Source: Patescibacteria group bacterium (GTDB lineage Bacteria; Patescibacteriota; Dojkabacteria; JAKAPS01). Taken from it: a stretch of 63,246 nucleotides of DNA. The DNA is taken from contig JANWIC010000006.1 in the NCBI GenBank assembly GCA_025450075.1, positions 1-63,246 of the forward strand, read 5' to 3'. The notes below the pieces were generated by a model. It had not been told where the DNA came from. It saw nothing but the letters and a program-made list of their open reading frames with translations, and ran no database searches. This document shows, one piece after another, positions 12,336 through 55,443 of this stretch (its first letter is position 1; each line of letters begins with the position of its first letter). The translations under genes were made by a program, and so were the position numbers.

Positions 12336-13622
12336 ATGCGGCAAACCAAAACTATGGCAGATTACATTGAATCTGGTGCTGTGGTCCCACCTGTGGAAAC
12401 AACACATAGAGAGTCATTTGATGAAATGATAGCACAACGGATGTTATCTACACTCAATACTATGATTTCTCTTATTACTGAAGGAAGATTTCCTTTTCAA
12501 ATATCTTTGGATGCCAATTCCCGTCTTCAATATTATATCCATCAGATATATAAAAAAGATATCTCTCCAAATATTCCTGAGGTATCGGTAACAGTAAAAA
12601 CATATCATAAAACTGAATTTAATGAGGATAGTTTGGGGGGATATCGTAAAGGGTATCCTGGAGAGAGAGCAATGAATCAAACTCCATCCCATTTAAAAAA
12701 TGAAACGTCATTGACTGGTGGGGTGCTCTATGTCCACAGTGAAGTAATTAGCCCTGAAGATCATTCACAGGGGTATTTGATAAACCTTTTACACAAGCAT
12801 TGGCTATACTTACAAACAAGGGCTAGTTCAGATGTGGTAGATCCGCTTGATAGATTACTTCTGGATGTGGGACCAGAAAAATTCGCAAGAAGTATGAAAA
12901 CATTCACAACTATGCATGCAAAGTATGGTAATGACTATGCAAATCGATATACATCTAGTCCTTATGAATTGCACTTGTATAATGAAAGACACGATGAAAC
13001 CTTACATGAAATTATAATGAAATTTGATATGCAAGGAAGATTAGTCAGAGCAGTTGTGATAAGAGAAATGCGTGAAGAAGAAAATAGATTCCTGCTGCAT
13101 ACAATGTTGGTTTTTAGAAATCAAGAACTAGTCTATTTCATGCAGCAGGAACCAGACGGAACATTTTTCCAAAGGAATGGAATATATCTTATTCCACCTT
13201 GGATATATGAGGCATATACTGATTATCTTGTTGGCAATCGTATTGAACCATGTAATATTCAAGATAGCGACGTATTACGATGGTGTTTTGAAAGAGCTCG
13301 AAGGGGAAGGCTATATGCACCTATTGCTAAGATACATGTTTATCGACTACCGCATAGAAGTATAAACAATTATTCAAGATATACTCCTAATGATCTTGCT
13401 TTCAGGAGACAAATTGACGAAAAGAAATTAAGAATTCTTCTTGCAACACGTACAAAGAAGGAGAAAATTCAGGGATTTAGATGGAGAAAAGGAAGAAAGC
13501 CATATGTCGGCAACTCTTCTATTTTTAGAGATAATGGATCAATCTATTTAATAGATAATAGAAATAAAAGAATGTTAACAGAAGATGAAGGGAAGCGATT
13601 GCTGTGGGAATGGGGAATGTAA
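12336..13622 (+). CDS. hypothetical protein (orphan, 428 aa, basic C-terminus)
   Basis: Long ORF with no motif I recognise. The ATG at 12336 overlaps a TATAAT (12332-12337), so ATG 12354 (MADYIESG) is an alternative start. Confidence 0.7.
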   Translation: MRQTKTMADYIESGAVVPPVETTHRESFDEMIAQRMLSTLNTMISLITEGRFPFQISLDANSRLQYYIHQIYKKDISPNIPEVSVTVKTYHKTEFNEDSLGGYRKGYPGERAMNQTPSHLKNETSLTGGVLYVHSEVISPEDHSQGYLINLLHKHWLYLQTRASSDVVDPLDRLLLDVGPEKFARSMKTFTTMHAKYGNDYANRYTSSPYELHLYNERHDETLHEIIMKFDMQGRLVRAVVIREMREEENRFLLHTMLVFRNQELVYFMQQEPDGTFFQRNGIYLIPPWIYEAYTDYLVGNRIEPCNIQDSDVLRWCFERARRGRLYAPIAKIHVYRLPHRSINNYSRYTPNDLAFRRQIDEKKLRILLATRTKKEKIQGFRWRKGRKPYVGNSSIFRDNGSIYLIDNRNKRMLTEDEGKRLLWEWGM

Positions 13623-18093: not shown

Positions 18094-19632
18094 TCAATGT
18101 AGAGGTCTGTTTCCCAGTAATTGGTCTAAAGTCCCTCTTCGTATATGTTCTACCATTTGATTAAGTGTAAAACCTCCTTCAGGATGATAATGATTTAAAA
18201 TTTGATCATGAATATAAGCAAGTATATCAGTTGTAATACCAGATAGACGGACAATTTTGATTTCTAATGGAACAGGCAATACTTGATACATTGAAGATTC
18301 TCTCAATTGTAGAATTTCACCAACTACCTGTAATTCTGGATGAGTTCTTTTAAATGCTTCTACTAAATAATTATGGGTTTGATCATCATCAGGAATTACA
18401 ATTGTAACTTGTGCGGGTTTAGATGAATTAAAAAATCTTGTTTCACGGAGTCCTGATAATGCAACAATATCTGCTATCATACTTAATCTCCCAGGGGGAT
18501 TATATGTGGTATCCATAAATGATATAGGGAGCATAAATCCTGTTACTCGAGGTGATTTATTATTTTCCATTACCAGACATATTGGCATTCTTTTTATTAA
18601 TCCAGATGGAAGGGACCCCTCACTATCTTCATGATTTCGAAAAATTGAACGTAAAATATCCCATGACTGATTATCAGAGGTAAATGGATATCCACCACTC
18701 CATGCAGACGAATTAATCATTACCAGATGGTCAAATATTATTCGTGGAACTTGAGTATCAAACTTTTCTATTAATGTTTTAACTTTCATTCTTGAAGCAA
18801 TTCTAATTAAATCGTTATATACTTGTGCGAAAAATTCTTGAACAAACTTTTGTTGATCTTCAATATGAAGAGGATTACTTAATCTGCTACGAGCATTATA
18901 ATAAGCTTCTGCAATGCATCGTTGTAGTATTAATTCTTGTTGATGCGTAAGAAATAATCTTGGCAATTCTAATCCACTTTGCTGTTCAATGTATGCAACT
19001 CTTCGATCAATTTCCTGAGGATCAACTTCTAGTGTATATGCATCAAATTGAATTCCATGTCTTTTATGTTCACGAGCTAAACTTACACTACTACTTCCTG
19101 TTATTAGCTTTATGGTAAAGGTTTCAGAAAATAGTTCCGGATATTTAGCGCGAAGTGTTTGTAAGCCTTTAAGTTGTGAGTCTAATGTATCGAGATCTAC
19201 ATGCTCTTGAAAAATGTAAATTTCATTTATAAGAGATTCATTTTTATGAAAAACAAATGAAAAATAAGGTATAAGGCCATCTGTAAATGGAGTTTTAAGT
19301 ATTGTCTCGGATTGATCTCCAGGGCCTCCTAAAACTCTACAAATTCTAGAACTTGCTAGTGGAGAAACAACTCTTCCTGTTAAGGTATTCTCTAATCTAT
19401 TGAGCATATAATTAGCAAATACTTGTGCCCTTATATCTACCATACAAGCTGTATCTGTCCTTAGATTTCTAGAAGTTCCCTCATAACCTCTGATTCGGTT
19501 CCAAAGATTTTCCCATTGATACAAACCGAATTCTTCTACCAGGGGATTTTCTGATTCAGAATATGTTGGATCGGAATTTGATCCATCTTCCTTAAGAATT
19601 CTTGCTAGAGTATATTCATTTAATATCTCCAT
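18094..19632 (-). CDS. hypothetical protein (orphan, 512 aa)
   Basis: Uninterrupted 512-codon ORF with balanced composition, no TM or signal peptide and no recognisable motif. Confidence 0.75.
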   Translation of the reverse strand: MEILNEYTLARILKEDGSNSDPTYSESENPLVEEFGLYQWENLWNRIRGYEGTSRNLRTDTACMVDIRAQVFANYMLNRLENTLTGRVVSPLASSRICRVLGGPGDQSETILKTPFTDGLIPYFSFVFHKNESLINEIYIFQEHVDLDTLDSQLKGLQTLRAKYPELFSETFTIKLITGSSSVSLAREHKRHGIQFDAYTLEVDPQEIDRRVAYIEQQSGLELPRLFLTHQQELILQRCIAEAYYNARSRLSNPLHIEDQQKFVQEFFAQVYNDLIRIASRMKVKTLIEKFDTQVPRIIFDHLVMINSSAWSGGYPFTSDNQSWDILRSIFRNHEDSEGSLPSGLIKRMPICLVMENNKSPRVTGFMLPISFMDTTYNPPGRLSMIADIVALSGLRETRFFNSSKPAQVTIVIPDDDQTHNYLVEAFKRTHPELQVVGEILQLRESSMYQVLPVPLEIKIVRLSGITTDILAYIHDQILNHYHPEGGFTLNQMVEHIRRGTLDQLLGNRPLH

Positions 19633-19727: not shown

Positions 19728-20228
19728 TCATTGGACTACCTTATAATGGAGTTGAATAGAATCATTTGAAAGTTTTGTAAAATTGAGAAGTTCTAATCGA
19801 AGTGATATTGTAGAATCATGGAAAAATGGAATACCACTTCCATATAGAAACGGTTCAATATCGATTACTACCTCATCGACTAATTCCTTTTCTAAAAGCA
19901 TTGTATTTATTTCCTTCCCTCCAGCAATGTTCACTGCTTCATGACCTTGGTTTTCAAGATATGCAATTGCTTCAGAAAGTGAGGTAAATGGTAATGCAAA
20001 ATCTTCCTCAATTGGTCTATGGGTAATGACGGCAATTGTCGCATGTAATGAATCAAATACCCCATCCTGGAGCATAATGTCATATGTGGTTCTTCCAATA
20101 ATTAATGCTTTTACTTCATTAATTCTTCTTTTATACTCTTCCCATTCCTCATCACTCCATTCCGTCGAGTTATCATTTTTTGCAATATATCCATTAACTG
20201 ATGATGCTAAATAAAGGATTTTTTTCAT
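19728..20228 (-). CDS. dihydrofolate-reductase-like / RibD C-terminal domain protein
   Basis: MKKILYLASSVNGYIAKND...LIIGRTTYD...NIAGG pattern of the RibD_C/DHFR-like family. Confidence 0.65.
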   Translation of the reverse strand: MKKILYLASSVNGYIAKNDNSTEWSDEEWEEYKRRINEVKALIIGRTTYDIMLQDGVFDSLHATIAVITHRPIEEDFALPFTSLSEAIAYLENQGHEAVNIAGGKEINTMLLEKELVDEVVIDIEPFLYGSGIPFFHDSTISLRLELLNFTKLSNDSIQLHYKVVQ

Positions 20229-20375: not shown

Positions 20376-21332
20376 TTATTTTTTATATCGAGGTTTTTTT
20401 AAAAGAAGAAAGATAAGTATGAATGGAACTCTTAATGGAAATCTACCAGAATATGCAAGATACTGATCTTGTAATATATCGGGTTTGTATTTCATCTTAA
20501 ATGAATTTAGTCCCGAGAATGTATAGAACTTAGGGATACCCGTCCGATAAATTAATGAAAAGAGTAATCGTGCAACTGGATGTTTAATATATTTTATCGA
20601 ATCCAAAAGAGGAGCAATTCCTAAATTAACCCCATATCCTTCATTTAAAAGAGTCAGCATAGATGATATTAGTATAAAATCAACTCCTTCAGGAAAATAG
20701 GTATGGTGATCACATCTTCCGAATAACTTAATGTTCCATTGCGTGTTTAACTGTGTTTTGTAATACAACACATAACTGATGATATCGTTATTATGTTTTG
20801 CAACAAATAGCCGTTTTGAAAAATTATCACAGGTATGGCTATCTAGAACAAAATGGAGAGATTTATCATGCGGAAGCCGATTCATCGTTTCATTAATATC
20901 TTTAGTTATCTCTTCAATTATCAATCCGTGATTCTTCCCTATATGTAAAGATCTCCTAAGTGATTTTCTTTTCCCCTCAGTTAAGTCAAGTTTTTTTGTA
21001 AGAATGGCATCATATCCGATGAAAAAGAAATGGTAATTTTCTTTTTTAAGAATTTTTCTCATATCATTATCGATGCATAAAAAATATATATGCATTTTCT
21101 TTCCTGCAAAGCAGGCAAAAAATTCATGCAATACCTCTTCATAGTTAACAGGTTTTGCATGCGGGTTTCCAATTACGATCAATTGCTTCCCCACTTTGTA
21201 ATATTGGATATATCCGTGTGAGGCGGAAAAATAATACATGAATGAATTGCATGCAGTATAAAAGTAGGGGTTTGATGAATCGGTACTGATTCTTTCTACG
21301 TCAGTTTTGGAAAGGCATTGTATTATATTCAC
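20376..21332 (-). CDS. stand-alone MprF C-terminal-like (DUF2156 / aminoacyl-phosphatidylglycerol synthase catalytic domain) transferase
   Basis: By-eye alignment with S. aureus MprF C-terminus: IVIGNPHAK~LIMGEPAGD; LTEGKRKSLRRSL~LKGNKYKPFRNAL; PEGVDFILISSML..GYGVNLGIAPL~PNGVMDFLFLSLF..GYHYFDLGMAPL; FYTFSGLNSFKMKYKP~FYSFNGLHKYKKKFTP. No N-terminal TM/flippase domain. GTG start, GTGA overlap with the upstream gene. Confidence 0.7.
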   Translation of the reverse strand: MNIIQCLSKTDVERISTDSSNPYFYTACNSFMYYFSASHGYIQYYKVGKQLIVIGNPHAKPVNYEEVLHEFFACFAGKKMHIYFLCIDNDMRKILKKENYHFFFIGYDAILTKKLDLTEGKRKSLRRSLHIGKNHGLIIEEITKDINETMNRLPHDKSLHFVLDSHTCDNFSKRLFVAKHNNDIISYVLYYKTQLNTQWNIKLFGRCDHHTYFPEGVDFILISSMLTLLNEGYGVNLGIAPLLDSIKYIKHPVARLLFSLIYRTGIPKFYTFSGLNSFKMKYKPDILQDQYLAYSGRFPLRVPFILIFLLLKKPRYKK

Positions 21333-22483
21333 GGATGGATTATTGATAAGTAATAAGGAAGTAAGAGAAACTGGGTTATGAAAAAACCAAAAATGTAATT
21401 TAGCCGGAGAAATATCATCCAGACATTTCTTGCCTTTTTTTCATCTGAGTTGAAAGAAAGTCTTGCAACATTAATTGGATATGCAATAAGAACGATACCA
21501 AGAAGCATTGTGAGAGCTGATCGTGAAAGGATAAGAAAAATGATTGCAATACTATAACAAATGGTTGCATAATATGCAGTAATTCTTGCTCCCATAACTG
21601 TTGCGACACTCTTCATTCCAGCTTGTCTGTCGGAAGAAATGTCTTGAATAGCACCCATGGATTGGGAAGCCATCCCCCACATGAAGAAAGAAAATAGTAC
21701 CTCAAACGGTAAATTTCTTATCCCTATTGCAAAAAGCATAGCAAGAAGTGGAAGAACAAAATGAAAACTTGAATTTATCGAATCAAGAAATGGTATCTCT
21801 TTAATCCTGAATGGTTTTGCACTATATGTAATCGCAAAAAATATCAATGCAAGGAAAATTGGAATAAGTTTGGAACTGAAGAAAAGAAAATATAAAAGGA
21901 ATGGAATATGTGAACCTAGAAAGAATAAAATCATTTGTGTAAATGACTGGTCTACTTTCGCTCCATCCAACTTTCCTTTGCGTGTATTAACCGCATCAGA
22001 TTCCTTATCGAAATAATCATTGATTCCATAAACACAAAAATTGTATGGAATTATGGTATAACCTAATAAGATAATGATCGATGGGGTTAAGATTGTGTGA
22101 TAAATAAGAAGCGCCCAAATACCAGGAACAAATGTATTCGGCCATAATGTAGGACGGGATATGATGAAATATCGCTTTAAATTTTTGATACTTACATGGT
22201 AATCTGTTTCATATAAAATTGCAGGAAGGTATGCAAGACAAAATCCATAGAGCAGGTCTTCGATTGGCATATAAGGGATACGAATATTTAATGTATGAGC
22301 GATAAAGTGGAACCGGAATACCCCTGCTATGTTTAAAATATTATCAAAAATGAATGTGAATAAAAGGAATATTCCTTCATATATCCAGAATACTTTCTTA
22401 GTGGAGACTTTCGCGCCTGATATAATATCTATGAAAAAAAGTATGCTTCCAATTATGAGAGCGAAAAATAAAAAGTTATCCAT
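21329..22483 (-). CDS. fusion of lycopene-cyclase-domain subunit and UbiA-family lycopene elongase (CrtYf-CrtEb / LbtBC-like)
   Basis: The N-terminal ~100 aa form a 3-TM cyclase-type domain with MPIEDLLY. The remainder is a UbiA prenyltransferase with Asp boxes NDYFDKESD and DISSDRQAG. ATG 22483 (MDNFLFF) preferred over 22516 and gives an 8-nt overlap with the upstream gene. Confidence 0.75.
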   Translation of the reverse strand: MDNFLFFALIIGSILFFIDIISGAKVSTKKVFWIYEGIFLLFTFIFDNILNIAGVFRFHFIAHTLNIRIPYMPIEDLLYGFCLAYLPAILYETDYHVSIKNLKRYFIISRPTLWPNTFVPGIWALLIYHTILTPSIIILLGYTIIPYNFCVYGINDYFDKESDAVNTRKGKLDGAKVDQSFTQMILFFLGSHIPFLLYFLFFSSKLIPIFLALIFFAITYSAKPFRIKEIPFLDSINSSFHFVLPLLAMLFAIGIRNLPFEVLFSFFMWGMASQSMGAIQDISSDRQAGMKSVATVMGARITAYYATICYSIAIIFLILSRSALTMLLGIVLIAYPINVARLSFNSDEKKARNVWMIFLRLNYIFGFFITQFLLLPYYLSIIHP

Positions 22484-22784
22484 GTTTTTGTAAAAATGAA
22501 TAGAGTGATAAAGCAAATGTTGTTGAACTTGCTAAAAAGAATAGCTCTTCTATCGGATATTGATAAAAAAGAAATAATCCGGATAATTTATCAGGATTAG
22601 AGAACCATATTGATTGTGAAATTCCCCATATATCCCATAGGGTAAAAAAACAAATATTTAAACCCACTATTATTACTATTCGCATAAATTTTTGCTTTTG
22701 AACACTAAGCAGATAAAAGGATAGCCCAATTAGCATGGTACAAACAGATACAATGTAAAGCCAATGATGTAGTAGGTTTTGCAT
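22476..22784 (-). CDS. small lycopene-cyclase-domain protein (heterodimeric carotenoid cyclase subunit, CrtYe/CrtYc-like)
   Basis: 102 aa, 3 TM, YPIEELFF motif characteristic of the lycopene cyclase domain. Confidence 0.7.
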   Translation of the reverse strand: MQNLLHHWLYIVSVCTMLIGLSFYLLSVQKQKFMRIVIIVGLNICFFTLWDIWGISQSIWFSNPDKLSGLFLFYQYPIEELFFLASSTTFALSLYSFLQKHG

Positions 22785-22871
22785 AGATTTGATTATCGGA
22801 ATGATTGTATCATCATATTTATGGAAAACAAAAGTCTGAGGTATAGTATAATCAATTGATTGCTAATTATT

Positions 22872-24347
22872 ATGAAAAAAGTCATTGTAGTCGGTGGAGG
22901 ATTAGGCGGTATTGCAACTGCGCTTCGTCTTCAATCGCAAGGGTTTAATACAACAATTATTGAGAAAAATAATACATTAGGGGGTAGATTAAATACTTTA
23001 CAAGAAAACGGATACCGTTTCGACCTTGGACCTTCCCTTATTGAATGGGTAGAAGTATTTAATGAGCTGTTTTCCTACGTTGGAAAAGATATGCAATCAT
23101 TTCTTGATTTTCATCGTCTACCTATTGCCTACAAAATATATTTCAAAGATGGGGACAGTATTACAGTTTATGCAGATATGCAAAAACTTGGGAAAGAATT
23201 AGAAAAATATGAAAAAGATGCGAGTAAGAAACTCGAAGCTTTTCTGGAAGAAAATAGGAAAAAATTTGAAATGCTCATGAACCTGGTGTTAACAAAAGAA
23301 GCAACGTTGCAAATGTTTTTGAATCCTAAGTTGTTGTTTATAGCGGTAAGATTCGGACTACTATGTTCATATACTCATGATATAAAGAAGTATTTTTCAA
23401 ATCCAAAAATTATTGATCTATTATCATTCCAGAATATATATTTCGGAACCGATCCGGATAAAGATCCTGCAATTTATACCATCCTTCCCTATGGTGAAAT
23501 TGCTCTTGGAGTATATTACCTCCAAGGTGGAATATACAGGATTGTTGAGACTCTTGAAACAATTGCGATAAAGATGGGAATTTCAATATTAAAAAATACG
23601 GAAGTGACGAAAATCAATATAAAGAATGGAATAATTACAGGAATACTGACAAAATCAGGAGAGAATATAAAGAGTGATATTGTTGTCGTAAATGAAAATA
23701 TAGCGAGTGCATCACATGATCTGATCGAAGAGAACTATCAGGATTATTCAGATTCATATTTTAAAAAAGCATCATTTTCTTCCTCAGTGATAACAATTTA
23801 TTTAGGGTTGAAAAAGACATTTCCAAATGCACAACACCATATGTTTTTTGTTGCAAAAACAGTCAAAGAATCAATACATGATATGCAACATAAACAAACA
23901 AGTACCTGGGATCCTTCTTTCTATATTAATATCCCAAGCATAACTGATCCAACATGTGCTCAAAAAGGACATAGTGCAGCATTTGTATTAATTCCTGTTC
24001 CAAATATTCAATATATGAAGGAATGGGATATATCTTCTTTGAAAAAGATCGTGTATGATCATATTGAAAATGACTTAAAACTATCCGGATTTATCAATTC
24101 AATTGAGTTTGAATCGATTATGACTCCACGAGATTGGAAAAGAAAATTTAATCTTTATCATGGAAGCACATTTGGGATGTCTCTACAATTAAATCAATTA
24201 GGGCCATTCAGGCCAGCTTGTAAATCAAAAAAGGTAGACGGATTATATTTTGTTGGTGCAGATATGCATCCCGGATCAGGACTCCCTCCTGTTCTTTTAA
24301 GTGCTCGTATTACATCGGATAAGATTCTACATGAAACAAAAAGATAA
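22872..24347 (+). CDS. crtI: phytoene desaturase
   Basis: VIVVGGGLGGIATALRL FAD fold and C-terminal YFVGADMHPGSGLPPVLLSA. First ATG at 22872 (track: TTG 22860). Confidence 0.9.
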   Translation: MKKVIVVGGGLGGIATALRLQSQGFNTTIIEKNNTLGGRLNTLQENGYRFDLGPSLIEWVEVFNELFSYVGKDMQSFLDFHRLPIAYKIYFKDGDSITVYADMQKLGKELEKYEKDASKKLEAFLEENRKKFEMLMNLVLTKEATLQMFLNPKLLFIAVRFGLLCSYTHDIKKYFSNPKIIDLLSFQNIYFGTDPDKDPAIYTILPYGEIALGVYYLQGGIYRIVETLETIAIKMGISILKNTEVTKINIKNGIITGILTKSGENIKSDIVVVNENIASASHDLIEENYQDYSDSYFKKASFSSSVITIYLGLKKTFPNAQHHMFFVAKTVKESIHDMQHKQTSTWDPSFYINIPSITDPTCAQKGHSAAFVLIPVPNIQYMKEWDISSLKKIVYDHIENDLKLSGFINSIEFESIMTPRDWKRKFNLYHGSTFGMSLQLNQLGPFRPACKSKKVDGLYFVGADMHPGSGLPPVLLSARITSDKILHETKR

Positions 24348-25281
24348 GCTAGAACTAGGAAAAAGACTTTTGCGTATGCATGGAAGAACATACAGCATTG
24401 CCAGTTTTTTCTTTCCACAAAAAACAAGAGAAAATGTTTATGCTTTGTATGCTTTTGTTCGAACCCTTGATGATAAGGTTGATGAAAAACATGAAGATGA
24501 TGCTGAAATCAAAAAATATTTCGATGAAAAGCGAAATGAAATTATGGCGCATCAAAGCAATGATGATGCAATAATGCCTTTTATTACAATGTGTAAATTA
24601 CTACATATACAAGAAATTTATCCTATGACATTTATCAATGCTATGGAAAATGATTTATACGTGATCCGATATGATTCGTTTTCCACACTTGAAGAATATA
24701 TGTATGGGTCAGCGTATGTGATTGGAATAATGCTTGGCAATATCATGAGGGTACCAAAAAAATATATTCCGAATGCAGGGCTTCTTGGAAATGCGATGCA
24801 ATTGACTAACTTTTTGCGAGATATTGGTGAAGATCTTGACCGCGGACGGATATACATTCCGCAAGAATATTTAAAGATGTTTGGAGTATCAGAGACTATG
24901 CTTCAAAAAAGAATGGTAAACAAATCTTTTATTGAGTTATATGCTTTCTTAATAAAGAAAAATAGAGAAATGTATATGGAAGCAAATAAAGGAATTAAGT
25001 CTATCCCATCTTTCCGCTCAAGAATTGCAGTCAGTCTTGCTTCTCTTTTATATGAAAAAATTCTGGATAAGATAGAAGCAAAACAATACAAGATTTTTAA
25101 TGAGCGTGTATATATAACCACTTGGGATAAAGTCTTGAGTGTATTGTATGTGGTTGTTTTGGAATCTTTTCGATTGCCTTTTCTATTTCTTCAAAGAAAT
25201 AAATATTGGGGAATATTTACAGACGCAATCCATAAAACGATAGCTTTCATTTGCGCAGGATTTTGTAATCAAAGTGCTTAA
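24331..25281 (+). CDS. crtB: phytoene synthase
   Basis: Asp-rich boxes YAFVRTLDDKVDE and NFLRDIGEDLDRGRIYIP. ATG 24331 overlaps the crtI end by 17 nt (track: GTG 24301). Confidence 0.9.
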   Translation: MKQKDKLELGKRLLRMHGRTYSIASFFFPQKTRENVYALYAFVRTLDDKVDEKHEDDAEIKKYFDEKRNEIMAHQSNDDAIMPFITMCKLLHIQEIYPMTFINAMENDLYVIRYDSFSTLEEYMYGSAYVIGIMLGNIMRVPKKYIPNAGLLGNAMQLTNFLRDIGEDLDRGRIYIPQEYLKMFGVSETMLQKRMVNKSFIELYAFLIKKNREMYMEANKGIKSIPSFRSRIAVSLASLLYEKILDKIEAKQYKIFNERVYITTWDKVLSVLYVVVLESFRLPFLFLQRNKYWGIFTDAIHKTIAFICAGFCNQSA

Positions 25282-25283
25282 TT

Positions 25284-26600
25284 TTAACTGTTTGAAGATA
25301 ATATTCTTTTTGTCTCAACCTTATACGACTCAACATTCGGCTGATCAAACGTATTGACATGGAGTAATTTGCCAAGATACATCATTTCTATCATTTTAAA
25401 TTGCATAAATTGACCAATTGAAAACAATGAAAGTGATTCAAGGTCAACTGATATAAATGGAAGATTTTTATGCTCATATGTTACCATGACACCTTCTAAG
25501 ATCGCATGGAGAATATCAGAAGTTGATTTAGATGCGATGTTATCAACAAGTCCTTCCATTGTTATTTCTTGTGGAAGAGAAAGAGACTCATCTGAGTTAA
25601 AAGCAAATACAAATTCTGTCATTTTGTCTTTCGGACCTCCAAGATATAACTGGCCAACAGAGTGCAAGTCAGTAGATCCAATAGATAAGTTTGGAGTAAT
25701 TCCAGTATTTACTATATTTCCATCAAGATCTTGTTCTTTGCCGATACTTTCTCCCATGAGCTGCCTGTACCATTTTCCAATTGATTCAAAATTTGATTGG
25801 AAGATAAAAGTATCATGAATAGTTTTACCTTGTTTAAGCTGGTTGAATTGTGCAATTGCAGATATAGCTGCTGGATTTTGTAATATGTTATGTGATAAGC
25901 AAGTATTTCTCATATCCAATGCACCTTGCAATATTTCCTTTGTATTTATCCCTGCTGCTTCAAGAGGAAAAATCCCCACAGGAGAAAATACACTAAATCT
26001 TCCTCCAACCGGTTTTGGAATTGGGAGACATGCAATACCCATCTCATGAGCTTTGTTCCATAAATGAGAATCTTCATCCGTTATAGCTATAACATTACGA
26101 AGTTCTTGTGCAAATATTTGAGAAGCATACGTATGTAACAGTTCAAAGTTTGCTACAGTCTCGGTTGTACCGCCTGATTTTGAAATAAGGACAATGAGAA
26201 CTTCTTCAGGTGTTATTCCCTGAGATTGTAATGAGGAACAGGTTCGTTTCATTTGTTCATTATTTACTGTATCCAAAAAAAGCATTTTAGGGTATCGATG
26301 TGGCTCAATCATGTCAAAAAAGCCATAGAATGCATCATAGATAGCCTTGGTTCCAAGGTTCGACCCTCCTATCCCGATATCAATGATATATTTAATTTTA
26401 GAGAGATCAAAATTATTTGCTAATGAACGTGACTTCTCATACAAATCATTATCACCCGGCATTAATATTGAAGATTCATACACTTCATACTCATGTCCAT
26501 CTACAACTTGTTGAAGTATATCAATGTATGGATGAAGAGATTCACCAGTCTGGATAAACGTATCTTCGGATACTTTAGAATGAGAAAAGTTTAATTTCAT
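25284..26600 (-). CDS. pgi: glucose-6-phosphate isomerase (short type)
   Basis: IGIGGSNLG, SKSGGTTET and GGRFSV motifs. ATG at 26600 (the track start at 26609 is TTG). One nt separates it from the transaldolase stop. Confidence 0.85.
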   Translation of the reverse strand: MKLNFSHSKVSEDTFIQTGESLHPYIDILQQVVDGHEYEVYESSILMPGDNDLYEKSRSLANNFDLSKIKYIIDIGIGGSNLGTKAIYDAFYGFFDMIEPHRYPKMLFLDTVNNEQMKRTCSSLQSQGITPEEVLIVLISKSGGTTETVANFELLHTYASQIFAQELRNVIAITDEDSHLWNKAHEMGIACLPIPKPVGGRFSVFSPVGIFPLEAAGINTKEILQGALDMRNTCLSHNILQNPAAISAIAQFNQLKQGKTIHDTFIFQSNFESIGKWYRQLMGESIGKEQDLDGNIVNTGITPNLSIGSTDLHSVGQLYLGGPKDKMTEFVFAFNSDESLSLPQEITMEGLVDNIASKSTSDILHAILEGVMVTYEHKNLPFISVDLESLSLFSIGQFMQFKMIEMMYLGKLLHVNTFDQPNVESYKVETKRILSSNS

Positions 26601-26601
26601 A

Positions 26602-27462
26602 TTATGCAAATAATGTATTTATATCCTGCATGAATTTCTCAACCCCTTTTGTTGTCAGTTCATGTTGAATATCGAATTCGGTATATGGCAATTGAAGATT
26701 AAGATCTTTATATGGAATATCTTGTAGTGAAGGAGTGTTATAGGAGAATTGTTCATCAGGAACAGGCATCCCTTGTTTGGCCCAATCATCTATTACTGAA
26801 AATGGAATTGTTATGATGTCTGAATGCAATGCCAGTGCTGCCATCAATTGGTTAACATTGCGGATACTTGCTGCAAGTACCTCTACATGATGGTCAGAGT
26901 TATTAAACATTTGTAAAATATTTCGTACAACTGATATACCGTTTTGTCCAATATCATCAAGCCGTCCAATAAAAGGAGATACAAAAGTACTTCCCCTTTG
27001 TGCTCCATTTGTTGAGCTATATACAGCTGCTGCCTGGTTTTGTGAGAAACATAATGTCATATTTACCCGGTTTCCATCCTGGGAAAACTTTTGTGCTGCT
27101 GCAAGACCTGCAGGAATAATAGGGAATTTAATATGTGCATTTGGAATCCACGAATACATTTCATATGCCTGATGAAGCATATCGTCAGTAGTTGTTGAAT
27201 AATCTGCAAAAACCTCGATTGAAACAGATCCGTCAGGAATGAGTGAAGATATGTTTTGTACAATCCCTTTATATAAAGGAAAAATATTTTCTCGAGTAAC
27301 TTGACCATTTGCTTTCATCTCCCCTATTTCCGGCACTTTCACAAGAAGTGTGGGATTAGTTGTTTGACCATCAAGAAAACCAAGGACATCTATGGCTTTT
27401 TTTGTTTCTGCCGGATCACCGCTATCTAAAAAAATCTTTGAGGACAGGTGTATGGGTCTCAT
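26602..27462 (-). CDS. tal: transaldolase-family protein
   Basis: FLDSGDP...GQTTNPTL and HIKFPI (Schiff-base Lys context). Confidence 0.8.
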   Translation of the reverse strand: MRPIHLSSKIFLDSGDPAETKKAIDVLGFLDGQTTNPTLLVKVPEIGEMKANGQVTRENIFPLYKGIVQNISSLIPDGSVSIEVFADYSTTTDDMLHQAYEMYSWIPNAHIKFPIIPAGLAAAQKFSQDGNRVNMTLCFSQNQAAAVYSSTNGAQRGSTFVSPFIGRLDDIGQNGISVVRNILQMFNNSDHHVEVLAASIRNVNQLMAALALHSDIITIPFSVIDDWAKQGMPVPDEQFSYNTPSLQDIPYKDLNLQLPYTEFDIQHELTTKGVEKFMQDINTLFA

Positions 27463-28582: not shown

Positions 28583-29551
28583 CTATTCCATCCGTGAAAG
28601 AAAACTAATAATCTGATTGTTTATTGCATTCCTGTCTTGCATATTGAGCCCTGCAAATTCATGTCCTCCGGGGAAAAGAATGTATTGCATGGGAATATGA
28701 TAAGATGCAAGTTTTCGTTTTAATTCATCAGATTGATCTTTTGGAACTAATATATCTGCATTTCCTTGAATGATTAATACCGGACTAGTTTTTGAAGAAA
28801 TATGACTTACTGGAGATGCGTCTGCATATAGAGTCGGGGCATGTGTTGGATCCTGGTTATTTGCAAGAGCGGATACGATTGGAGATGCAATAGAAAGGTC
28901 TTCATAGTAAAGTCTACTTAAGTCAGTTGGACCGAATTCATCAATTGCACAATTTGTTTTCGGTGAAACTTTTGGGTAAATGTTTTGCGTATCTCCCTGA
29001 TGGATTATCGACATCTCATCTAAAAGAAGTGACAGCTGACCTCCAGCAGAATCTCCCATAGAACAAATCGAATTCGGATTTATATGCAGAGTTGTACTAT
29101 GCGCTCGTATGTATCGAACTGCAAGTTGTGCATCATTAATTTGAGCTGGCCAAGGAGATTGCAATGCCAGTCTATAATCAATATTTGCAACAACAAATCC
29201 ATTTGATGCTAAGAAATTACAATAATCACTAAAAACTGATTTATCACCACTTACCCATCCTCCTCCATGGATATATATAACACCAGAGCGATTTGTATTT
29301 GCATTTTCAGGAATACATTCATCTAAAATCTGTTTGGAGTCATTTCCGTAATGGATATTTGTTATTTGATTGACGGGATAATGTCTATCAACATTACTGA
29401 TGGTCGGAATGGTAATTTCGGTTTTTGGTTTTGATATTGAAGTTATTGAAGATGCATGCAGCGCATCAACTCCAGAAATGATACATAAAAATATACTGCA
29501 AATCATGAGAAATGCCAGGTTTTTTGTATGAGAATATTTTTTCTTTTTCAT
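28583..29551 (-). CDS. secreted alpha/beta hydrolase (HSL-type esterase/lipase)
   Basis: Signal peptide MKKKKYSHTKNLAFLMICSIFLCIISG, HGGGW oxyanion motif, GDSAGG nucleophile elbow and a C-terminal GGHEF His. Confidence 0.8.
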   Translation of the reverse strand: MKKKKYSHTKNLAFLMICSIFLCIISGVDALHASSITSISKPKTEITIPTISNVDRHYPVNQITNIHYGNDSKQILDECIPENANTNRSGVIYIHGGGWVSGDKSVFSDYCNFLASNGFVVANIDYRLALQSPWPAQINDAQLAVRYIRAHSTTLHINPNSICSMGDSAGGQLSLLLDEMSIIHQGDTQNIYPKVSPKTNCAIDEFGPTDLSRLYYEDLSIASPIVSALANNQDPTHAPTLYADASPVSHISSKTSPVLIIQGNADILVPKDQSDELKRKLASYHIPMQYILFPGGHEFAGLNMQDRNAINNQIISFLSRME

Positions 29552-29616: not shown

Positions 29617-30549
29617 TTAGGAATGAGAAGAATTTTGAAGTCCAAATAATAACATTAATAGATCTTTTTGAATTGCTTGTGCTATTGCGATATTAAAAAT
29701 ATTACGAGTATGAGAATCATAAAAAAGATCCATAGCGGTCGCTGGTTTTCCCGCATCCGATCCAATATTATTTAAAATTGCCCGGACATTCGGAAGAGCA
29801 GTAAAATCAAATCGGCTCAGAAGTGTAGTATGAAGTATTTCTGAATTTGGATCAGTATCATGAGTATCCATCCATCGTAAAATTAATCTCCGGGCTGCCA
29901 AAATTTGAAATGTATCATTATTGCTATACTGAAGAATTACTGCAAGAAGGTAGTCGGTTAATTGCTTATTAATTTCTGGTTTAAGAATAAGAATTTGTTC
30001 ATGAATATCTACATCATTTTTATATATGCTTTTATAATATCCTAAAATAATGCTTCTGATAAATTGATTGGCTGTGTTTTTTGTGTTTTGAATCCCACCA
30101 TAATTAGCATTGGTGATCTTTTTAATTTCATCTTCTGAGAGATCAAGTAAATTAATAAAAGCTGCCATTACCATTTGTCTTTGTTGTAGAACATCCAAAA
30201 TACGGGGTCTTCTAGCAAATTGATAAATTAAACTACTTGGAATAAAATTGAGATTTGGATCTTCTTGAAATCTTCTATATATATTTGCCGCTTCTTCAAG
30301 AGCTCTGAGATTAATTTCACGGGAATCTTTTTCAATTTTTTTTATCTCATTTTGAGTACTTAATAAAAATTCACGAGTTAAAGCAAAAAGATATAATCCT
30401 GATGCTTCTAATACCTCAGAGGGTATTTGATTCACATCAATACCAAATATTTCAATCATGAAAAATTCTCCAGGAATATATCTTTCAGGAATTTGAAAAG
30501 TTTCTGGCGGCATTGCAATTCCTGCAATTCTACTATCAATATCTGTCAT
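29617..30549 (-). CDS. hypothetical protein (orphan, 310 aa, helical)
   Basis: Uninterrupted ORF with no recognisable motif. Confidence 0.7.
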   Translation of the reverse strand: MTDIDSRIAGIAMPPETFQIPERYIPGEFFMIEIFGIDVNQIPSEVLEASGLYLFALTREFLLSTQNEIKKIEKDSREINLRALEEAANIYRRFQEDPNLNFIPSSLIYQFARRPRILDVLQQRQMVMAAFINLLDLSEDEIKKITNANYGGIQNTKNTANQFIRSIILGYYKSIYKNDVDIHEQILILKPEINKQLTDYLLAVILQYSNNDTFQILAARRLILRWMDTHDTDPNSEILHTTLLSRFDFTALPNVRAILNNIGSDAGKPATAMDLFYDSHTRNIFNIAIAQAIQKDLLMLLFGLQNSSHS

Positions 30550-36824: not shown

Positions 36825-37817
36825 TCATTCGATTGTAGGTAATAATAATTGAGTAAGAAGGTTTGCAATATCCCTCATATTTTTTATGATATCAGGATTA
36901 GTTGTTGAGGGTATTCCATACAAATTGTAATCATCCAAGCCACTTCTTACCATAACGAGGAAACGTACAAACGGTATTGCATAGCCTCCATATGAATAAT
37001 GCTCTCTGGAAAATGTAAATACATTTCCATCTCTTAACATTATTTCTTCATTTGCCATTCTTGAACCTCCTTTAAATACCATTTTGCTTGAATAACTGTG
37101 ATCACTGGTAATATTTTGAACAAATAATGATATTTTTAATTCATTGTTAAAGGCAATAAGAATGTGAAATTCCTTTAATTTTAACAGCTGTTCTGCAATA
37201 AGTGATGCCTTCGCTATTCCTTCAATACTAATAAAAGGAGATAAGGTCAGATTCGATCTTTCTTGTAACATCATCAATACTTCTGCGATTCTCTCACAGT
37301 CTACATTTACAGTTGATTGATCTAATCCATCTTTTAGAGGAACAAATATGCACATATTATTTACGGCTCTTTCTCTTTGAAGGGAGTCCGCAATTCTACT
37401 TTCAATTTGTGTGGATCCATTATCATCACTTACTGAAAGTAAAAAAGGATAAAATTTGTTGTTTATAAAACCAACAAATATTTGTTTTCCCGTAAAACCA
37501 CTTCCCCATCTGTATTCTTCTCCCAGACCAAATCTTCTTGACCAGCCGGCATTAAACTGAGAGATTGGATGAAAAAGATCATTGAATATCCTTTCCATAA
37601 GTTTATTAAATTCCACTTCTGAAAGTTGAGTCGGATTCAGTGAATAGTGTTGATATGGCCTGGGATATTTGCCAATATTGATTTCCCATAAAGTTTGAAT
37701 TAATTCATCCCAATTCATTGGAACTCCATCATATCCTTGTAGTAGAGTGATTTTATCAGGGTTCAAACTATCAAGAGTAAATAATTTTTCATCACTCCAT
37801 TCTACAGCTTCTGACAT
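36825..37817 (-). CDS. hypothetical protein (orphan, 330 aa)
   Basis: Uninterrupted ORF, 48 nt upstream of the nucleosidase gene on the same strand. A TATAAT-like box lies 9 nt upstream of the ATG. Confidence 0.7.
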   Translation of the reverse strand: MSEAVEWSDEKLFTLDSLNPDKITLLQGYDGVPMNWDELIQTLWEINIGKYPRPYQHYSLNPTQLSEVEFNKLMERIFNDLFHPISQFNAGWSRRFGLGEEYRWGSGFTGKQIFVGFINNKFYPFLLSVSDDNGSTQIESRIADSLQRERAVNNMCIFVPLKDGLDQSTVNVDCERIAEVLMMLQERSNLTLSPFISIEGIAKASLIAEQLLKLKEFHILIAFNNELKISLFVQNITSDHSYSSKMVFKGGSRMANEEIMLRDGNVFTFSREHYSYGGYAIPFVRFLVMVRSGLDDYNLYGIPSTTNPDIIKNMRDIANLLTQLLLPTIE

Positions 37818-38653: not shown

Positions 38654-39559
38654 ATGCTGGATATGCGAAAAGACTCAACAAACAATCAGGAATATGGATT
38701 GCTTCCAATGCCGGATTCATCTCACAAAGTACGTCAGTATAAGGTGAAGGTAAAGCAAGCCTTATACGTACCAACGCAAAAAATTGCAAAATTGTTTAAA
38801 AAATCAACATTTGATTCTCATATTTGGGTAACAAGTGATATAGATCTCCTCCTTCAGGCAATATCTCATTATGGAAAGATAGGACCACGAAAAGCTGAAG
38901 GAAAATACAAAGGACTCGAGGGTGATCCAACAAGACAACAAATCATTTTGTATACGTTAGTCCTTGATAAAGATTTAGAACACATCCTTTTCTATACCCG
39001 TTCATCACCTCAAAGTGTATCTTCTTCTCAAATTAACCTTCTTGGTGATAAAAGATTGCAAGGAAAGGGATCAATTGGTTTTGGTGGCCACATCGAACAT
39101 ATCGACCAATTTCAGTGGAAAGTACTTGCACTTCTCATTCCTGGATTTTATGAACAAATTAGAAAAACATTATCTTTAGAAATTGCTAGAATTCGAGAGT
39201 TTGAGGAAGAATTAGGTATAAATGGCACAGATCTTGCGCATTTCTTCCTTGCTACTGCGTTTCGTCAGGTATATACAAAAGAAGAATTACAAGAAGATAT
39301 ACCGGTAGGTGCCGTCCATACATGTATCTGTGCTGTTGCAATACTTGATACACAAAAACTGTTGGCTGAAAATCGTTCACTTATTTTCCAGAAATCAGAA
39401 ATAGCTTCATTGGAATGGATCAAGGTAAAAGAATTGAAAAAATTATTAGAACGATTTGAAAATGATGGAGGAGAAATTGAAGAATGGTCTCAAATCCTCA
39501 TTCACCTTTTTCCTGATATTTTACAAGAAGCAAAAAGAATGGTAAAGAATAAAAGATAA
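38654..39559 (+). CDS. long NUDIX-like protein with an interrupted Nudix box
   Basis: GSIGFGGHIEH ... (~30-aa insertion) ... IARIREFEEELGI resembles a split G-x5-E-x7-REUxEExGU motif. TATAAT (38650-38655) overlaps the first ATG, so ATG 38663 may be the real (leaderless) start. Confidence 0.5.
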   Translation: MLDMRKDSTNNQEYGLLPMPDSSHKVRQYKVKVKQALYVPTQKIAKLFKKSTFDSHIWVTSDIDLLLQAISHYGKIGPRKAEGKYKGLEGDPTRQQIILYTLVLDKDLEHILFYTRSSPQSVSSSQINLLGDKRLQGKGSIGFGGHIEHIDQFQWKVLALLIPGFYEQIRKTLSLEIARIREFEEELGINGTDLAHFFLATAFRQVYTKEELQEDIPVGAVHTCICAVAILDTQKLLAENRSLIFQKSEIASLEWIKVKELKKLLERFENDGGEIEEWSQILIHLFPDILQEAKRMVKNKR

Positions 39560-40513: not shown

Positions 40514-41527
40514 TTATTGATTGGTGAGATAAGGCAAAATACTTTTTAATTTTTGGACTAGACCTCTTTTAAATTCAGTTTCAGCCCATTTTCGCTTAAG
40601 TCTATCCATGACTTCCTCAACAAAGTTTTTTGATCCTGGAATTGGTTCACCATACTCATCTAAATTTTTCGGAAGTGGAATAGGTACTATCCTCGTATAT
40701 CCGAATGTTATGACATCACCATTTGGATTGATAATTGCACCAATAACCAAATGGCTAAAATGAGGAGGATAACCTTCATTTACTAACCTTCGGTTATCCC
40801 AAGTTGGAGGAACAATTCCGATTTTTTCAATTACTGTAAATCCACGGGGAAGAATTCTTCCATTTTGCAAATTCGGGAATATGCCAATTGCGTACGAATT
40901 ATTATTTCTCATAGCATTGAACATGATTTGGTGATATTGATACAATAAGTTTTCAGATTCATTTACTCGTTGTATAAATCCGGCAAAATATTTAACTAGA
41001 TCATACAGGGTTGCTGTATTCCCTCCTTCTGAAAGAAGCATTCCATGGTTTAGTGAAGAAGGAAGAAGAGTTGTAGATGGCATCCATTCTTGGACTCTCC
41101 TTTGCATTTCATCAAATCCTATGAGTTGAATGAGGTATTCTCTTGCATCCCTAAATGCTATTTCAGAAGAGGTATGAAGTGCTAATTGGCAAAATTCATT
41201 AAAACTTAACTTTACCTCCCCTTCTTGATAAGAAGGATTCCACAATCCTCTTGTTTCGTTTCTAAATGCCTCAAAATTAGCAATTGGAATAATTGGAGTT
41301 TGTGGATCGATGTTCATTTTTGCCAATTCTGTTGCTAGCATCTCAGCTATAGGGACTTTTACCGTGCATGCCATTGGAATTGGAATAGCATCTTCTTTAG
41401 TTGAAGATATAGGATTTCCATTTAGAAAGGCTTCAAATCCTTCATGAAATGGAGTAAATTGATCTTGTAAAGATTCACCATTTCTATCTGCATTTTGCTG
41501 GTATTGACTTAAAGTTTCCCTAGCCAA
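40514..41527 (-). CDS. hypothetical protein (orphan, 337 aa, TTG start)
   Basis: Uninterrupted ORF with no recognisable motif, tightly coupled to the downstream NUDIX gene. Confidence 0.7.
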   Translation of the reverse strand: MARETLSQYQQNADRNGESLQDQFTPFHEGFEAFLNGNPISSTKEDAIPIPMACTVKVPIAEMLATELAKMNIDPQTPIIPIANFEAFRNETRGLWNPSYQEGEVKLSFNEFCQLALHTSSEIAFRDAREYLIQLIGFDEMQRRVQEWMPSTTLLPSSLNHGMLLSEGGNTATLYDLVKYFAGFIQRVNESENLLYQYHQIMFNAMRNNNSYAIGIFPNLQNGRILPRGFTVIEKIGIVPPTWDNRRLVNEGYPPHFSHLVIGAIINPNGDVITFGYTRIVPIPLPKNLDEYGEPIPGSKNFVEEVMDRLKRKWAETEFKRGLVQKLKSILPYLTNQ

Positions 41528-46407: not shown

Positions 46408-47460
46408 ATGGCAGAGCAGGATACAGGACAAGACGGACAATATTTTCATCCTGATGGAGCATTCTCATCTCCAATGACCATAAATCCGCAATCTGTCGCT
46501 GAAATTCTTTCAGCGGTAGAAAGGATTAATTATGGTGATAATGCGAGGAGGGTAACTCCTGAAGCTATTGCAGATCCAGGAAAGTTGGTACATCCTGAAA
46601 CTGCTCATGGATTTGAATTAGCTTCAAAAGCGGCTGCTGCTGCTCCTATCATCGCCTCAGAAGCACTCTCTCAAGAAGATAAAACTATTTATCCTTTAAC
46701 TTTAGGACATAGAGAAGTTTATGAAATTTATCCAGTTGTAGAAGGTATATCAAAATTTCTTCATGCGGTATGGAATCCATTGGGCAATCTATTTGATAAG
46801 GTTGTTGACCGTTTTACCTCACCATTTACTTCGAATTTACATTATCTTGGTCTAAGCATATGGAAACTTACAGAACGGTTTAAGAAATCAAAAAATCCCC
46901 GTGAAGATTTTGTAAATGAATTAAAAAATTTATATGAAATAATGAATGGAGAACATGAAGTAAACAAAAGCCCTAAAAAGAATGTCGCTAAAATTATTCG
47001 GGATTTTGCAAGAATTCGGCTTAATCCCCAAAATGTTATAAATAGTAGGACCCGAGAAAATTTCCCTATCTTATCAGAAATACTGCCATACTTTCTATCA
47101 CCTACCGGGAAAGTATTTAAAGGAAAGAACTCCATACCGCAAGCCACTCCGGAGATTCTTAGGGGATTACATGCATTTCTGCTAAAACAAGGTATCAATA
47201 ATTTACCTCCAATCAGTGAAGTTCAAGAAGACTGGATTAGGAGATTAATAATGAGAATACCTGCTATCCAAGGAAAACTTGAAAGAGTTGAGACTGAGCT
47301 TCCTAATATTCTCGAAGCTATTTATGAGCTTACTCCTTCAAATGGAAAAGAGTTTGAAGAAGCTTTGATGGGTCTTGCAAGAACCATTTATCAAAGAAAG
47401 ACTAACGGTATAAAAGGGATACAGATATTTGATGGACTTAATCCATTTAGAAGGCATTAA
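46408..47460 (+). CDS. hypothetical protein (orphan, 350 aa)
   Basis: Uninterrupted ORF with no recognisable motif. Confidence 0.7.
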   Translation: MAEQDTGQDGQYFHPDGAFSSPMTINPQSVAEILSAVERINYGDNARRVTPEAIADPGKLVHPETAHGFELASKAAAAAPIIASEALSQEDKTIYPLTLGHREVYEIYPVVEGISKFLHAVWNPLGNLFDKVVDRFTSPFTSNLHYLGLSIWKLTERFKKSKNPREDFVNELKNLYEIMNGEHEVNKSPKKNVAKIIRDFARIRLNPQNVINSRTRENFPILSEILPYFLSPTGKVFKGKNSIPQATPEILRGLHAFLLKQGINNLPPISEVQEDWIRRLIMRIPAIQGKLERVETELPNILEAIYELTPSNGKEFEEALMGLARTIYQRKTNGIKGIQIFDGLNPFRRH

Positions 47461-47543
47461 AATTTACCTAAAGATTTTTCCTGTTATTCAATATCCCTAA
47501 CTTTTATCCTGTTTGACTCAGTCATATATATTTGTCATGATGT

Positions 47544-48482: not shown

Positions 48483-48486
48483 TGAT

Positions 48487-48810
48487 ATGATGAATCATTT
48501 TTATTCAGATTTAGTAAAATTAGAAAAAATTATAGAAGTATTAGAAACTTTTGATCTTTCTTTAGAAGAAAAAGAAGAACTATTACATATAGCGCATGAA
48601 ACAACACATCATGCGATTCTTGATATGATTTTATCTGAACTTCCTGAAGAAGATAAGACAACGTTTCTTATCTATATCTCAGATGAGGATCATGAAATGG
48701 TATGGAGTCATCTACGGGATAATATTGAAGATATTGAAAATAAGATTATTGCTGTGTCAAAAAAGGTTGAGGAAACACTTTTGGATGATATAAAAGAAAT
48801 TATTGAATGA
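48487..48810 (+). CDS. small acidic hypothetical protein
   Basis: 107 aa, starts 4 nt after the previous stop, Glu/Asp-rich and helical. Confidence 0.6.
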   Translation: MMNHFYSDLVKLEKIIEVLETFDLSLEEKEELLHIAHETTHHAILDMILSELPEEDKTTFLIYISDEDHEMVWSHLRDNIEDIENKIIAVSKKVEETLLDDIKEIIE

Positions 48811-48859
48811 GTTTGCATTCTTTCAATTCGAATACCTTAAGAAAGGACATTGATAACTG

Positions 48860-49657: not shown

Positions 49658-49755
49658 AAATGCATTTTAAGATATCCTTGTGATTGTACTATATACAGCT
49701 GAATAGATAAATATTAAGAAGGATTGTTCTTATATAAGGAAAAGATAGATTAACT

Positions 49756-50060: not shown

Positions 50061-50300
50061 TATAACTATAATCTCTCTGATAATTAAGTCCTGATTACCC
50101 AATTATTAGTTACTATTTCATGATCCCCAACAAGATCCATTTCATCTTTTCTTTTATAATCTCTAAATCCGCTAATATTCCTTTTTGTCACCTTCATTTA
50201 TTTTATAAGTAATAAGATACTGTATATATTTCATTTAAAATTTGTTTCCCCTTGTAATACAGCATAAATTATTCTAAGATCTGATTAATATTATATATAC

Positions 50301-52172: not shown

Positions 52173-52364
52173 AGTTTCTAAATTTTAGGTTCTTTATCTT
52201 GAAATATTTTTACATTTTGATCTTCCTTTTGCAGATTCTCATCCATATGTTATGATCTATTGTCTTTCAATTTATACCTTTCCCATGTTAAATCTGATTT
52301 AATATGCCTCATACTTTAAGGATAAATATAGTAATTCATGAGTTTTAAATGATAGAAGATACTT

Positions 52365-52815: not shown

Positions 52816-52834
52816 AGTTACTTTGATAGATCTT

Positions 52835-55359: not shown

Positions 55360-55443
55360 GAAAATATATTAACATAATCAATAGATGAGAGTAAAACATA
55401 TTATATTAAGGAAGTAGTTGGTTTTATTTGACGAATTTCTAGT

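Follow-up and report, generated by a model that had tools for sequence, protein, structure and literature searches.

A stand-alone DUF2156 transferase gene coupled to a carotenoid elongase gene in a Patescibacteria genome, and a tentative case for tRNA-dependent carotenoid tailoring

Background

Which molecule is modified by a transferase of the MprF type when its gene is tied to a carotenoid elongase gene? The question is raised by a 63,246-nucleotide stretch of DNA from a Patescibacteria group bacterium (assembly GCA_025450075.1, contig JANWIC010000006.1, positions 1 to 63,246; hereafter the window), in which the gene for a stand-alone DUF2156 protein of 318 amino acids (aa) overlaps the stop codon of a lycopene cyclase-elongase gene. 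Transfer RNA (tRNA)-dependent aminoacylation of lipids was long believed to be confined to bacterial glycerolipids. The decoration of ergosterol by fungal DUF2156 enzymes showed an acceptor range wider than the family name suggests, and the gene described here offers a specific starting point in the search for a third class of acceptors, the carotenoids. It is a testable lead from a single genome. We consider it very likely that the gene encodes a genuine DUF2156 transferase and is expressed together with the carotenoid genes, and we tentatively favour a role in carotenoid tailoring, which is weighed below against three other explanations.

Results and discussion

A DUF2156 transferase without a membrane part

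The 318-aa protein matches the family profile PF09924 (LPG_synthase_C, DUF2156) well above the gathering score used as cut-off (73.7 bits, E = 1.7e-20; cut-off 27.5 bits). Only the C-terminal part of the NCBIfam MprF model NF033480 is matched (profile positions 707-838 of 841; 70.7 bits vs a cut-off of 600), and the protein hence falls outside the bifunctional MprF group, in which a multi-pass N-terminal flippase is fused to the synthase domain. In a phmmer search of the PDB, residues 32-311 were aligned with the L-PGS of B. licheniformis (4v36; E = 2.8e-15), and the Agrobacterium (5vrv) and Rhizobium (6lv0) structures were also found. The AlphaFold2 model, computed from 27 sequences, is predicted with confidence (pLDDT 84.4, pTM 0.83), and its best Foldseek matches are all synthase domains of MprF (5vrv, 4v36, 4v34, 6lv0 and 7f47; E = 1e-17 to 1e-19; TM score 0.70-0.77), with FemX and the aminoacyl-tRNA-dependent peptide synthases trailing far behind and Sbb17/Sba18 among the remote fold matches. 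The predicted fold is accordingly the tandem GNAT fold of the MprF or aminoacyl-phosphatidylglycerol (aminoacyl-PG) synthase catalytic domain (4v36, 4v34, 5vrv, 6lv0), although the identity to these domains is only 20-23%. No transmembrane segment was seen in the protein, whose highest mean Kyte-Doolittle value over 19 residues is 1.46 and whose net charge is about +16. A first-pass annotation of this DNA had proposed a stand-alone protein of the MprF C-terminal type lacking the flippase and transmembrane domain, and Pfam, the phmmer match to 4v36, the AlphaFold2 model, Foldseek and hydropathy all agree with this proposal. As judged from the model, we are dealing with a complete and soluble tandem-GNAT DUF2156 transferase, probably with a functional fold.

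Coupling to the cyclase-elongase gene

The GTG start codon of the DUF2156 gene (21332-21330) shares four bases with the upstream 395-aa open reading frame (ORF), which ends with TGA at 21331-21329; the minus-strand junction reads ...atc cat ccG TGA ata.... No possible start codon precedes this GTG in the frame between the two stops. The sole later in-frame start, Met32, is disfavoured because translation from there would lose N-terminal residues, although the alignment with homologues begins as early as about residue 18-23. The GTGA overlap and the translational coupling to the cyclase-elongase, both put forward in the first-pass annotation, are thus read directly in the sequence. Overlaps occur in 9 of the 44 same-strand neighbour pairs of the window and measure exactly 4 nt in four of them, the elongase/DUF2156 pair included, so that a 4-nt overlap is the usual operon-type coupling for this genome. 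No terminator-like hairpin was found between the elongase and DUF2156 genes, nor in the 147 bp that separate the latter from the next same-strand ORF; the notion that the DUF2156 gene is the last one of the operon is therefore plausible only. Promoter-like consensus matches around the gene are at chance level (24 sites vs 34 expected). Its GC content (0.32) and its GC content at third codon positions (GC3, 0.29) are the same as those of its neighbours, so that the gene is not a recent insertion.

Two other explanations of the junction were discarded. A fused elongase-DUF2156 polypeptide is unnecessary, as the alignment between the elongase and homologous proteins runs right to the elongase stop codon, and overlaps of the GTGA type are standard for coupled genes. 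An alternative code with TGA read as Gly was also rejected: TGA closes 13 of the 64 ORFs of the window at sensible lengths (TAA closes 44 and TAG 7), and reading through the stop of the elongase would lengthen its frame by just two codons.

The carotenoid gene cluster

The genes upstream of the DUF2156 gene and on the opposite strand bring together crtB, crtI, the heterodimeric cyclase-domain proteins and a UbiA lycopene elongase (Table 1). We take this layout to be of the lbtA/lbtBC type, named after lbtBC of Dietzia and presumably serving the synthesis of a cyclic hydroxylated C50 carotenoid. The elongase fusion matches UbiA (PF01040, E = 1.6e-25) and NF009608 (218 bits, cut-off 217), while its N-terminal cyclase-like domain stays below threshold (PF18916, 22 vs 27 bits, E = 2.4e-4; TIGR03462, 28 vs 39 bits). 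Its residues 10-391 are collinear in tblastn with 396-aa actinobacterial fusions of like architecture. The true start of the fusion is probably 11 codons further in, because the database gene call has 384 aa and not the 395 aa counted from the first TTG. The small cyclase subunit is recognised by TIGR03462 (44.2 bits, cut-off 39.4) and PF18916 (26.1 bits).

Both the elongase and CrtI are nearest (33-41% identity) to proteins from metagenome-assembled genomes (MAGs) of Patescibacteria/Saccharibacteria and from Actinobacteria, and C50 carotenoid genes have already been reported in Patescibacteria (PMC9948471). The closest relatives of the elongase, at 40-41% identity, are five loci from Patescibacteria/Saccharibacteria MAGs (L004, L007, L008, L009 and L053), two of which (L008 and L007) also hold the best matches of CrtI. 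The Dietzia-type lbtA-lbtBC and actinobacterial crtYe/Yf-crtEb clusters have a similar make-up: besides crtB and crtI they encode a small subunit of the cyclase and a fused cyclase-elongase of about 395 aa. However, both of the actinobacterial fusion clusters that we examined have an MMPL transporter gene after the fusion, whereas a DUF2156 gene follows in the window.

In these actinobacterial lbtBC-type clusters the gene for the MMPL/RND-type transporter overlaps the stop of the fusion (L001, 4857-7187; L002, 6536-8791), and the transporter may be a partner for carotenoid export or flipping. A gene for geranylgeranyl diphosphate (GGPP) synthase (polyprenyl_synt) was found neither beside the crt genes nor among the scanned ORFs of the window. 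Related clusters (L002, L004 and L005) carry such a gene beside crtB, and the only prenyl-chain enzyme seen in the window is the cis-prenyltransferase UppS (2182-2961). For crtI (TTG 22860) and crtB (GTG 24301, overlapping crtI by 47 nt) the true starts probably lie downstream of the annotated ones: an ATG with a TATAAT before it occurs four codons into crtI, and further Met codons come later in crtB.

tRNA-side features and a possible carotenoid acceptor

Conservation was scored against 155 relatives aligned to the family hidden Markov model (HMM). At the 61 well-conserved family positions the DUF2156 protein has 30 identical, 12 similar and 19 different residues, and the most invariant ones (P57, G106, R126, G238, P241, K279 and P284) are all kept. 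Between GNAT I and GNAT II lies a predicted helix (residues 120-134) with six Lys/Arg, in which R126 occupies a column that is Arg in 97% of the relatives. A basic helix at this place, the alpha(+) helix, binds the acceptor arm of tRNA in the family (PMC7334510, PMC8913301, PMC6103681) and is essential in ErgS (PMC8913301); the helix of the DUF2156 protein has the features of this family element and is predicted to play the same role. The F-K-x-K-F/Y-x-P motif of the donor site is also present, with K279 being Lys in 99% of the relatives, K281 Lys in 83% and P284 conserved in 90%. For the roles of single residues we relied on a preprint on AfMprF (bioRxiv 10.64898/2026.04.24.720753). F278 aligns with Phe824 of AfMprF, whose change to Ala gives an inactive enzyme (bioRxiv 10.64898/2026.04.24.720753), and the hydrophobic I110 aligns with the GNAT-I tunnel residue Leu645. 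The retention of these donor-side features (the alpha(+) helix with R126 and F278-K279-x-K281-x-x-P284), which the protein has in common with the MprF catalytic domain, lends support to carotenoid tailoring.

We tentatively favour a reading in which the DUF2156 protein would be a tailoring enzyme that esterifies the terminal hydroxyl of a C50 carotenoid from a charged tRNA, because its gene is tightly coupled to the elongase gene, the protein has no membrane anchor, a glycosyltransferase holds the equivalent place in the closest relatives, and sterols offer a precedent. A carotenoid acceptor, taken by itself, is possible at the same tentative level. The membrane-embedded cyclase-elongase would produce a hydroxylated cyclic C50 carotenoid, while the 3' end of the charged tRNA would be held by the basic inter-GNAT helix and the F-K-x-K motif. 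The acyl (aminoacyl) group would then be moved to the primary hydroxyl of the C5 extension newly added by the elongase. The anchorless DUF2156 protein would probably dock on the elongase, just as the transmembrane domain positions the catalytic domain in MprF. That docking on the cyclase-elongase yields the first aminoacyl-carotenoid (or a carotenoid with another tRNA-derived acyl group), and that a pocket lined by Lys202 selects an unusual donor, is a more specific proposal which we regard as doubtful.

The lack of an anchor matters here, for the isolated catalytic domain of MprF makes no aminoacyl-PG in vivo, the lipid being out of reach without the membrane domain (PMC8131360). The parallel in related clusters comes from a family 2 glycosyltransferase (GT2) fused to the C-terminus of the elongase in all five closest loci, that is, a hydroxyl-decorating enzyme at the position which the separate DUF2156 gene takes in the window. 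Ergosterol, an isoprenoid alcohol, is esterified by the DUF2156 enzymes ErdS and the freestanding ErgS (PMC7334510, PMC8913301). These fungal ergosteryl-amino-acid synthases, which we compared by description only, take the amino acid from aminoacyl-tRNA and form an ester with the hydroxyl group of a lipid of isoprenoid origin (PMC7334510, PMC8913301), but ErdS is fused to aspartyl-tRNA synthetase and the acceptor is the sterol 3-beta-OH and not a carotenoid. GNAT-fold aminoacyl-tRNA transferases are furthermore found to tailor the products of natural-product clusters, as do VlmA and PacB (PMC6103681). VlmA, PacB, DhpH/K, FzmI and Orf11/Sbb17 (PMC6103681) resemble the present case in that the transferase is encoded inside the biosynthetic cluster and decorates the pathway product, but the VlmA/PacB-type enzymes act on amines and hydroxylamines of water-soluble Streptomyces antibiotics and none is tied to carotenoids.

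The UbiA-GT2 fusion ORFs of the five loci measure 670-688 aa (e.g. L004, 10001-12034), and about 20 such 670-aa proteins are present among the elongase matches. Their domain combination implies synthesis of C50 carotenoid glycosides by one polypeptide.

Weighing donor, acceptor and synteny

Several observations weigh against carotenoid tailoring, and the first of them concern the pocket that holds the aminoacyl group. In AfMprF, Asp750 and Arg753 of the I-D-L-M-R strand adjoin the lysinamide position, the D750A and R753A mutants make no Lys-PG, and M752L is inactive too (bioRxiv 10.64898/2026.04.24.720753). Three independent alignments agree in placing Lys202 at the essential Asp position, Phe204 replaces Met752, and Gly205 stands at the position of Arg753 with Arg206 following one residue later, so that the strand lacks both the acidic residue and the Arg in register. 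Of the 155 relatives, 109 have D in the Asp750 column, 26 have E and none has K; about 10% of family members are non-acidic there. The spacing of K202 and R206 is that of a stand-alone subgroup with the pattern W-x-I-[acid]-x-x-x-R ("GWLIEQIIR"). The start of GNAT II is altered as well (W150M, E158S and G164D), and the active-site loop that follows the strand carries a 3-residue insertion before the P-x-G loop. Because both essential residues of AfMprF are replaced, the activity of the DUF2156 protein seems less than assured. Its tRNA-side features look intact, while the pocket for the aminoacyl group appears remodelled. With Lys202 in place of the essential acidic residue, the standard pocket for a Lys-tRNA or Ala-tRNA donor should not be assumed; neither Asp nor Glu stands at the position that usually provides the partner of the alpha-amino group, so that the donor is not predictable and may be other than Lys- or Ala-tRNA. 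Donors and acceptors of DUF2156 proteins are in any case not predictable from sequence (PMC8913301).

The distribution of the gene weighs in the same direction. A word-index search of 5.8 billion proteins returned the DUF2156 protein itself as the only match, an exhaustive HMMER search of 1.84 billion representatives gave a best relative at E = 9e-12 with 24-28% identity, and a profile search added just seven distant proteins; in these searches the protein is an orphan for which no ortholog was found. The first-pass annotation had asked for the co-occurrence of DUF2156 genes with carotenoid elongase genes in other genomes and had counted its absence in relatives as a refutation; our survey gave no conserved synteny. 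On the elongase side, 166 loci were sampled (80 GTDB species genomes, 80 metagenomes and 6 others, with flanks of up to 10 kb and 2.3 Mb in all), and none of them had a DUF2156 gene when the family HMM was run on all six-frame ORFs. On the DUF2156 side, none of seven stand-alone relatives had carotenoid neighbours, several of their contigs being very short; the genes next to them are unrelated and heterogeneous, with LysE, UxaE, a sulfotransferase, an SLH protein and a CLC channel among their products. The association of DUF2156 with carotenoid genes is therefore a single instance in one genome. This makes the carotenoid idea less likely but does not refute it: with no ortholog to compare, the synteny test is a weak one.

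Stand-alone members of PF09924 abound, most of them with no assigned acceptor, so that the absence of a flippase is nothing special by itself; what is new is the carotenoid context together with the Lys202 pocket. In the literature searched we found no aminoacyl-carotenoid, and nowhere were enzymes of the DUF2156/MprF type linked to carotenoids. Operons of compact genomes can also mix functions: carotenoids and aminoacyl-lipids both tune membranes and could be co-regulated with no chemical link between them.

This last point leads to an explanation that is nearly as likely as carotenoid tailoring, namely an ordinary aminoacylase of membrane glycerolipids (forming aminoacyl-PG, -diacylglycerol or -glycolipid) which is co-transcribed in a shared 'membrane adaptation' unit and takes no part in pigment chemistry. 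All characterised bacterial DUF2156 enzymes use glycerolipids or glycolipids (PMC6103681, PMC8913301), the protein shares both its fold and its donor-side motifs with MprF, and the missing carotenoid synteny and mixed neighbourhoods of the relatives fit well with a membrane-lipid enzyme. However, the protein has neither a transmembrane nor a flippase part, and isolated catalytic domains fail at aminoacyl-PG synthesis in vivo (PMC8131360). The loss of the D750 and R753 pocket residues runs contrary to the standard chemistry of Lys/Ala-PG, and the 4-nt coupling to the elongase is tighter than co-regulation alone needs.

The remodelled pocket raises another, rather unlikely explanation, in which the transferase is neofunctionalised and uses a different donor (an acidic or N-blocked aminoacyl-tRNA, or a donor of the acyl-coenzyme A or acyl carrier protein type) and/or a different acceptor (a small molecule or another lipid), but not a carotenoid. 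A Lys at position 202 that is seen in none of the 155 relatives, the changes at the start of GNAT II, the loop insertion and the extreme divergence (identities of at most 28% to relatives among 1.84e9 representatives) are all consistent with such a shift, and the superfamily does include tandem GNATs dependent on coenzyme A as well as aminoacyl-tRNA-dependent peptide synthases. On the other hand, the basic tRNA-binding helix and the motif of the invariant Lys279 have been kept, and the position in the operon still favours the carotenoid pathway. Least probable is a catalytically dead or decaying MprF-type remnant that is either retained for a structural role beside the elongase or en route to loss: substitution of both residues whose Ala mutants abolish Lys-PG synthesis in AfMprF, differences at 19 of the 61 well-conserved positions and the orphan status would agree with decay, but the 318-aa frame is intact with a confident full-length predicted fold, 42 of the 61 positions are identical or similar, the seven most invariant ones among them, and an acidic residue at the 202 position is missing from about 10% of the family too.

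If carotenoid tailoring is true, tRNA-dependent lipid aminoacylation would extend from glycerolipids and sterols to carotenoids, and this in a Patescibacteria-related lineage. The products would form a new class of pigments, charged or zwitterionic, with a placement in the membrane unlike that of neutral carotenoids. The change from Asp to Lys in the pocket provides a natural probe of the role of this residue. Even if the carotenoid reading is false, the case records a highly divergent stand-alone member of DUF2156.

Neighbouring genes and other features of the window

The positions of the DUF2156 gene, its sequence elements and its neighbours are collected in Table 1.

Table 1. Positions of the DUF2156 gene, its elements and the surrounding genes in the window
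Feature	Position	Strand	Remarks
Stand-alone DUF2156 / aminoacyl-PG synthase-type tandem-GNAT transferase gene	20376..21332	(-)	318 aa, GTG start, TAA stop
GTGA start/stop overlap, cyclase-elongase TGA and DUF2156 GTG	21329..21332	(-)	Read from sequence
Basic alpha(+) helix between GNAT I and GNAT II, codons 120-134 (GKRKSLRRSLHIGKN)	20931..20975	(-)	Helix in AlphaFold2 model
Donor-site motif F-K-x-K-F/Y-x-P, codons 278-284 (F-K-M-K-Y-K-P)	20481..20501	(-)	Conservation in relatives
Strand corresponding to I-D-L-M-R motif, codons 201-206 (I-K-L-F-G-R)	20715..20732	(-)	Alignment
Lycopene-cyclase-domain / UbiA lycopene-elongase fusion, lbtBC-like	21329..22516	(-)	395 aa; PF01040, NF009608, collinear homologues
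Small lycopene-cyclase-domain subunit, lbtA / crtYe-like	22476..22784	(-)	102 aa; first gene of minus-strand operon; TIGR03462, PF18916
Phytoene desaturase CrtI, divergent	22860..24347	(+)	TIGR02734 crtI_fam, 379.8 bits (cut-off 238)
Phytoene synthase CrtB	24301..25281	(+)	PF00494 SQS_PSY, E = 4.6e-57
RibD_C/DHFR-like gene	19728-20228	(-)	166 aa; downstream of DUF2156 gene, same strand
512-aa ORF	18094-19632	(-)	Downstream, same strand; GC3 unusually low, 0.16

Downstream of the DUF2156 gene, the 512-aa ORF has no match in Pfam, NCBIfam, PDB or PADLOC. On the other side of the cluster, a sugar-phosphate pair of genes (25284-27462, minus strand, with an 8-nt overlap) abuts crtB in convergent orientation; one encodes a short glucose-6-phosphate isomerase of the PGI family and the other a transaldolase.

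Synthases of aminoacyl-lipids are often paired with a hydrolase. An alpha/beta hydrolase gene is present about 7 kb from the DUF2156 gene (28583-29551, minus strand; BD-FAE, E = 1.6e-48; Abhydrolase_3 PF07859, E = 1.6e-23). ErdH, the fungal hydrolase of Erg-Asp and partner of ErdS, belongs to PF07859 as well (PMC7334510). The link of this hydrolase to the DUF2156 gene is weak because unrelated genes stand between them, and unlike MprF-type genes with an aminoacyl-lipid hydrolase partner at their side, the DUF2156 gene lies in a carotenoid operon.

The window has a GC content of 33.5%, and Rfam indicated no RNA gene (rRNA or tRNA) in it. None of the large ORFs that form a run at 46408-57576 (350, 312, 623, 504 and 540 aa) falls into a Pfam family, and the three longest of them (623, 504 and 540 aa) lack a PADLOC match as well. 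Further orphan ORFs are found at 12336-13622, 29617-30549, 36825-37817, 38654-39559 and 40514-41527, and the many ORFs without a Pfam family point to a poorly sampled lineage. The Shine-Dalgarno motif is almost wholly absent before the ORFs of the window, and a TATAAT-like hexamer ends about 6-12 nt before many starts (e.g. 13666, 36776, 37817, 43121, 44077, 50301, 58147 and 59339), a pattern that suggests widespread leaderless messenger RNAs or messenger RNAs with very short leaders.

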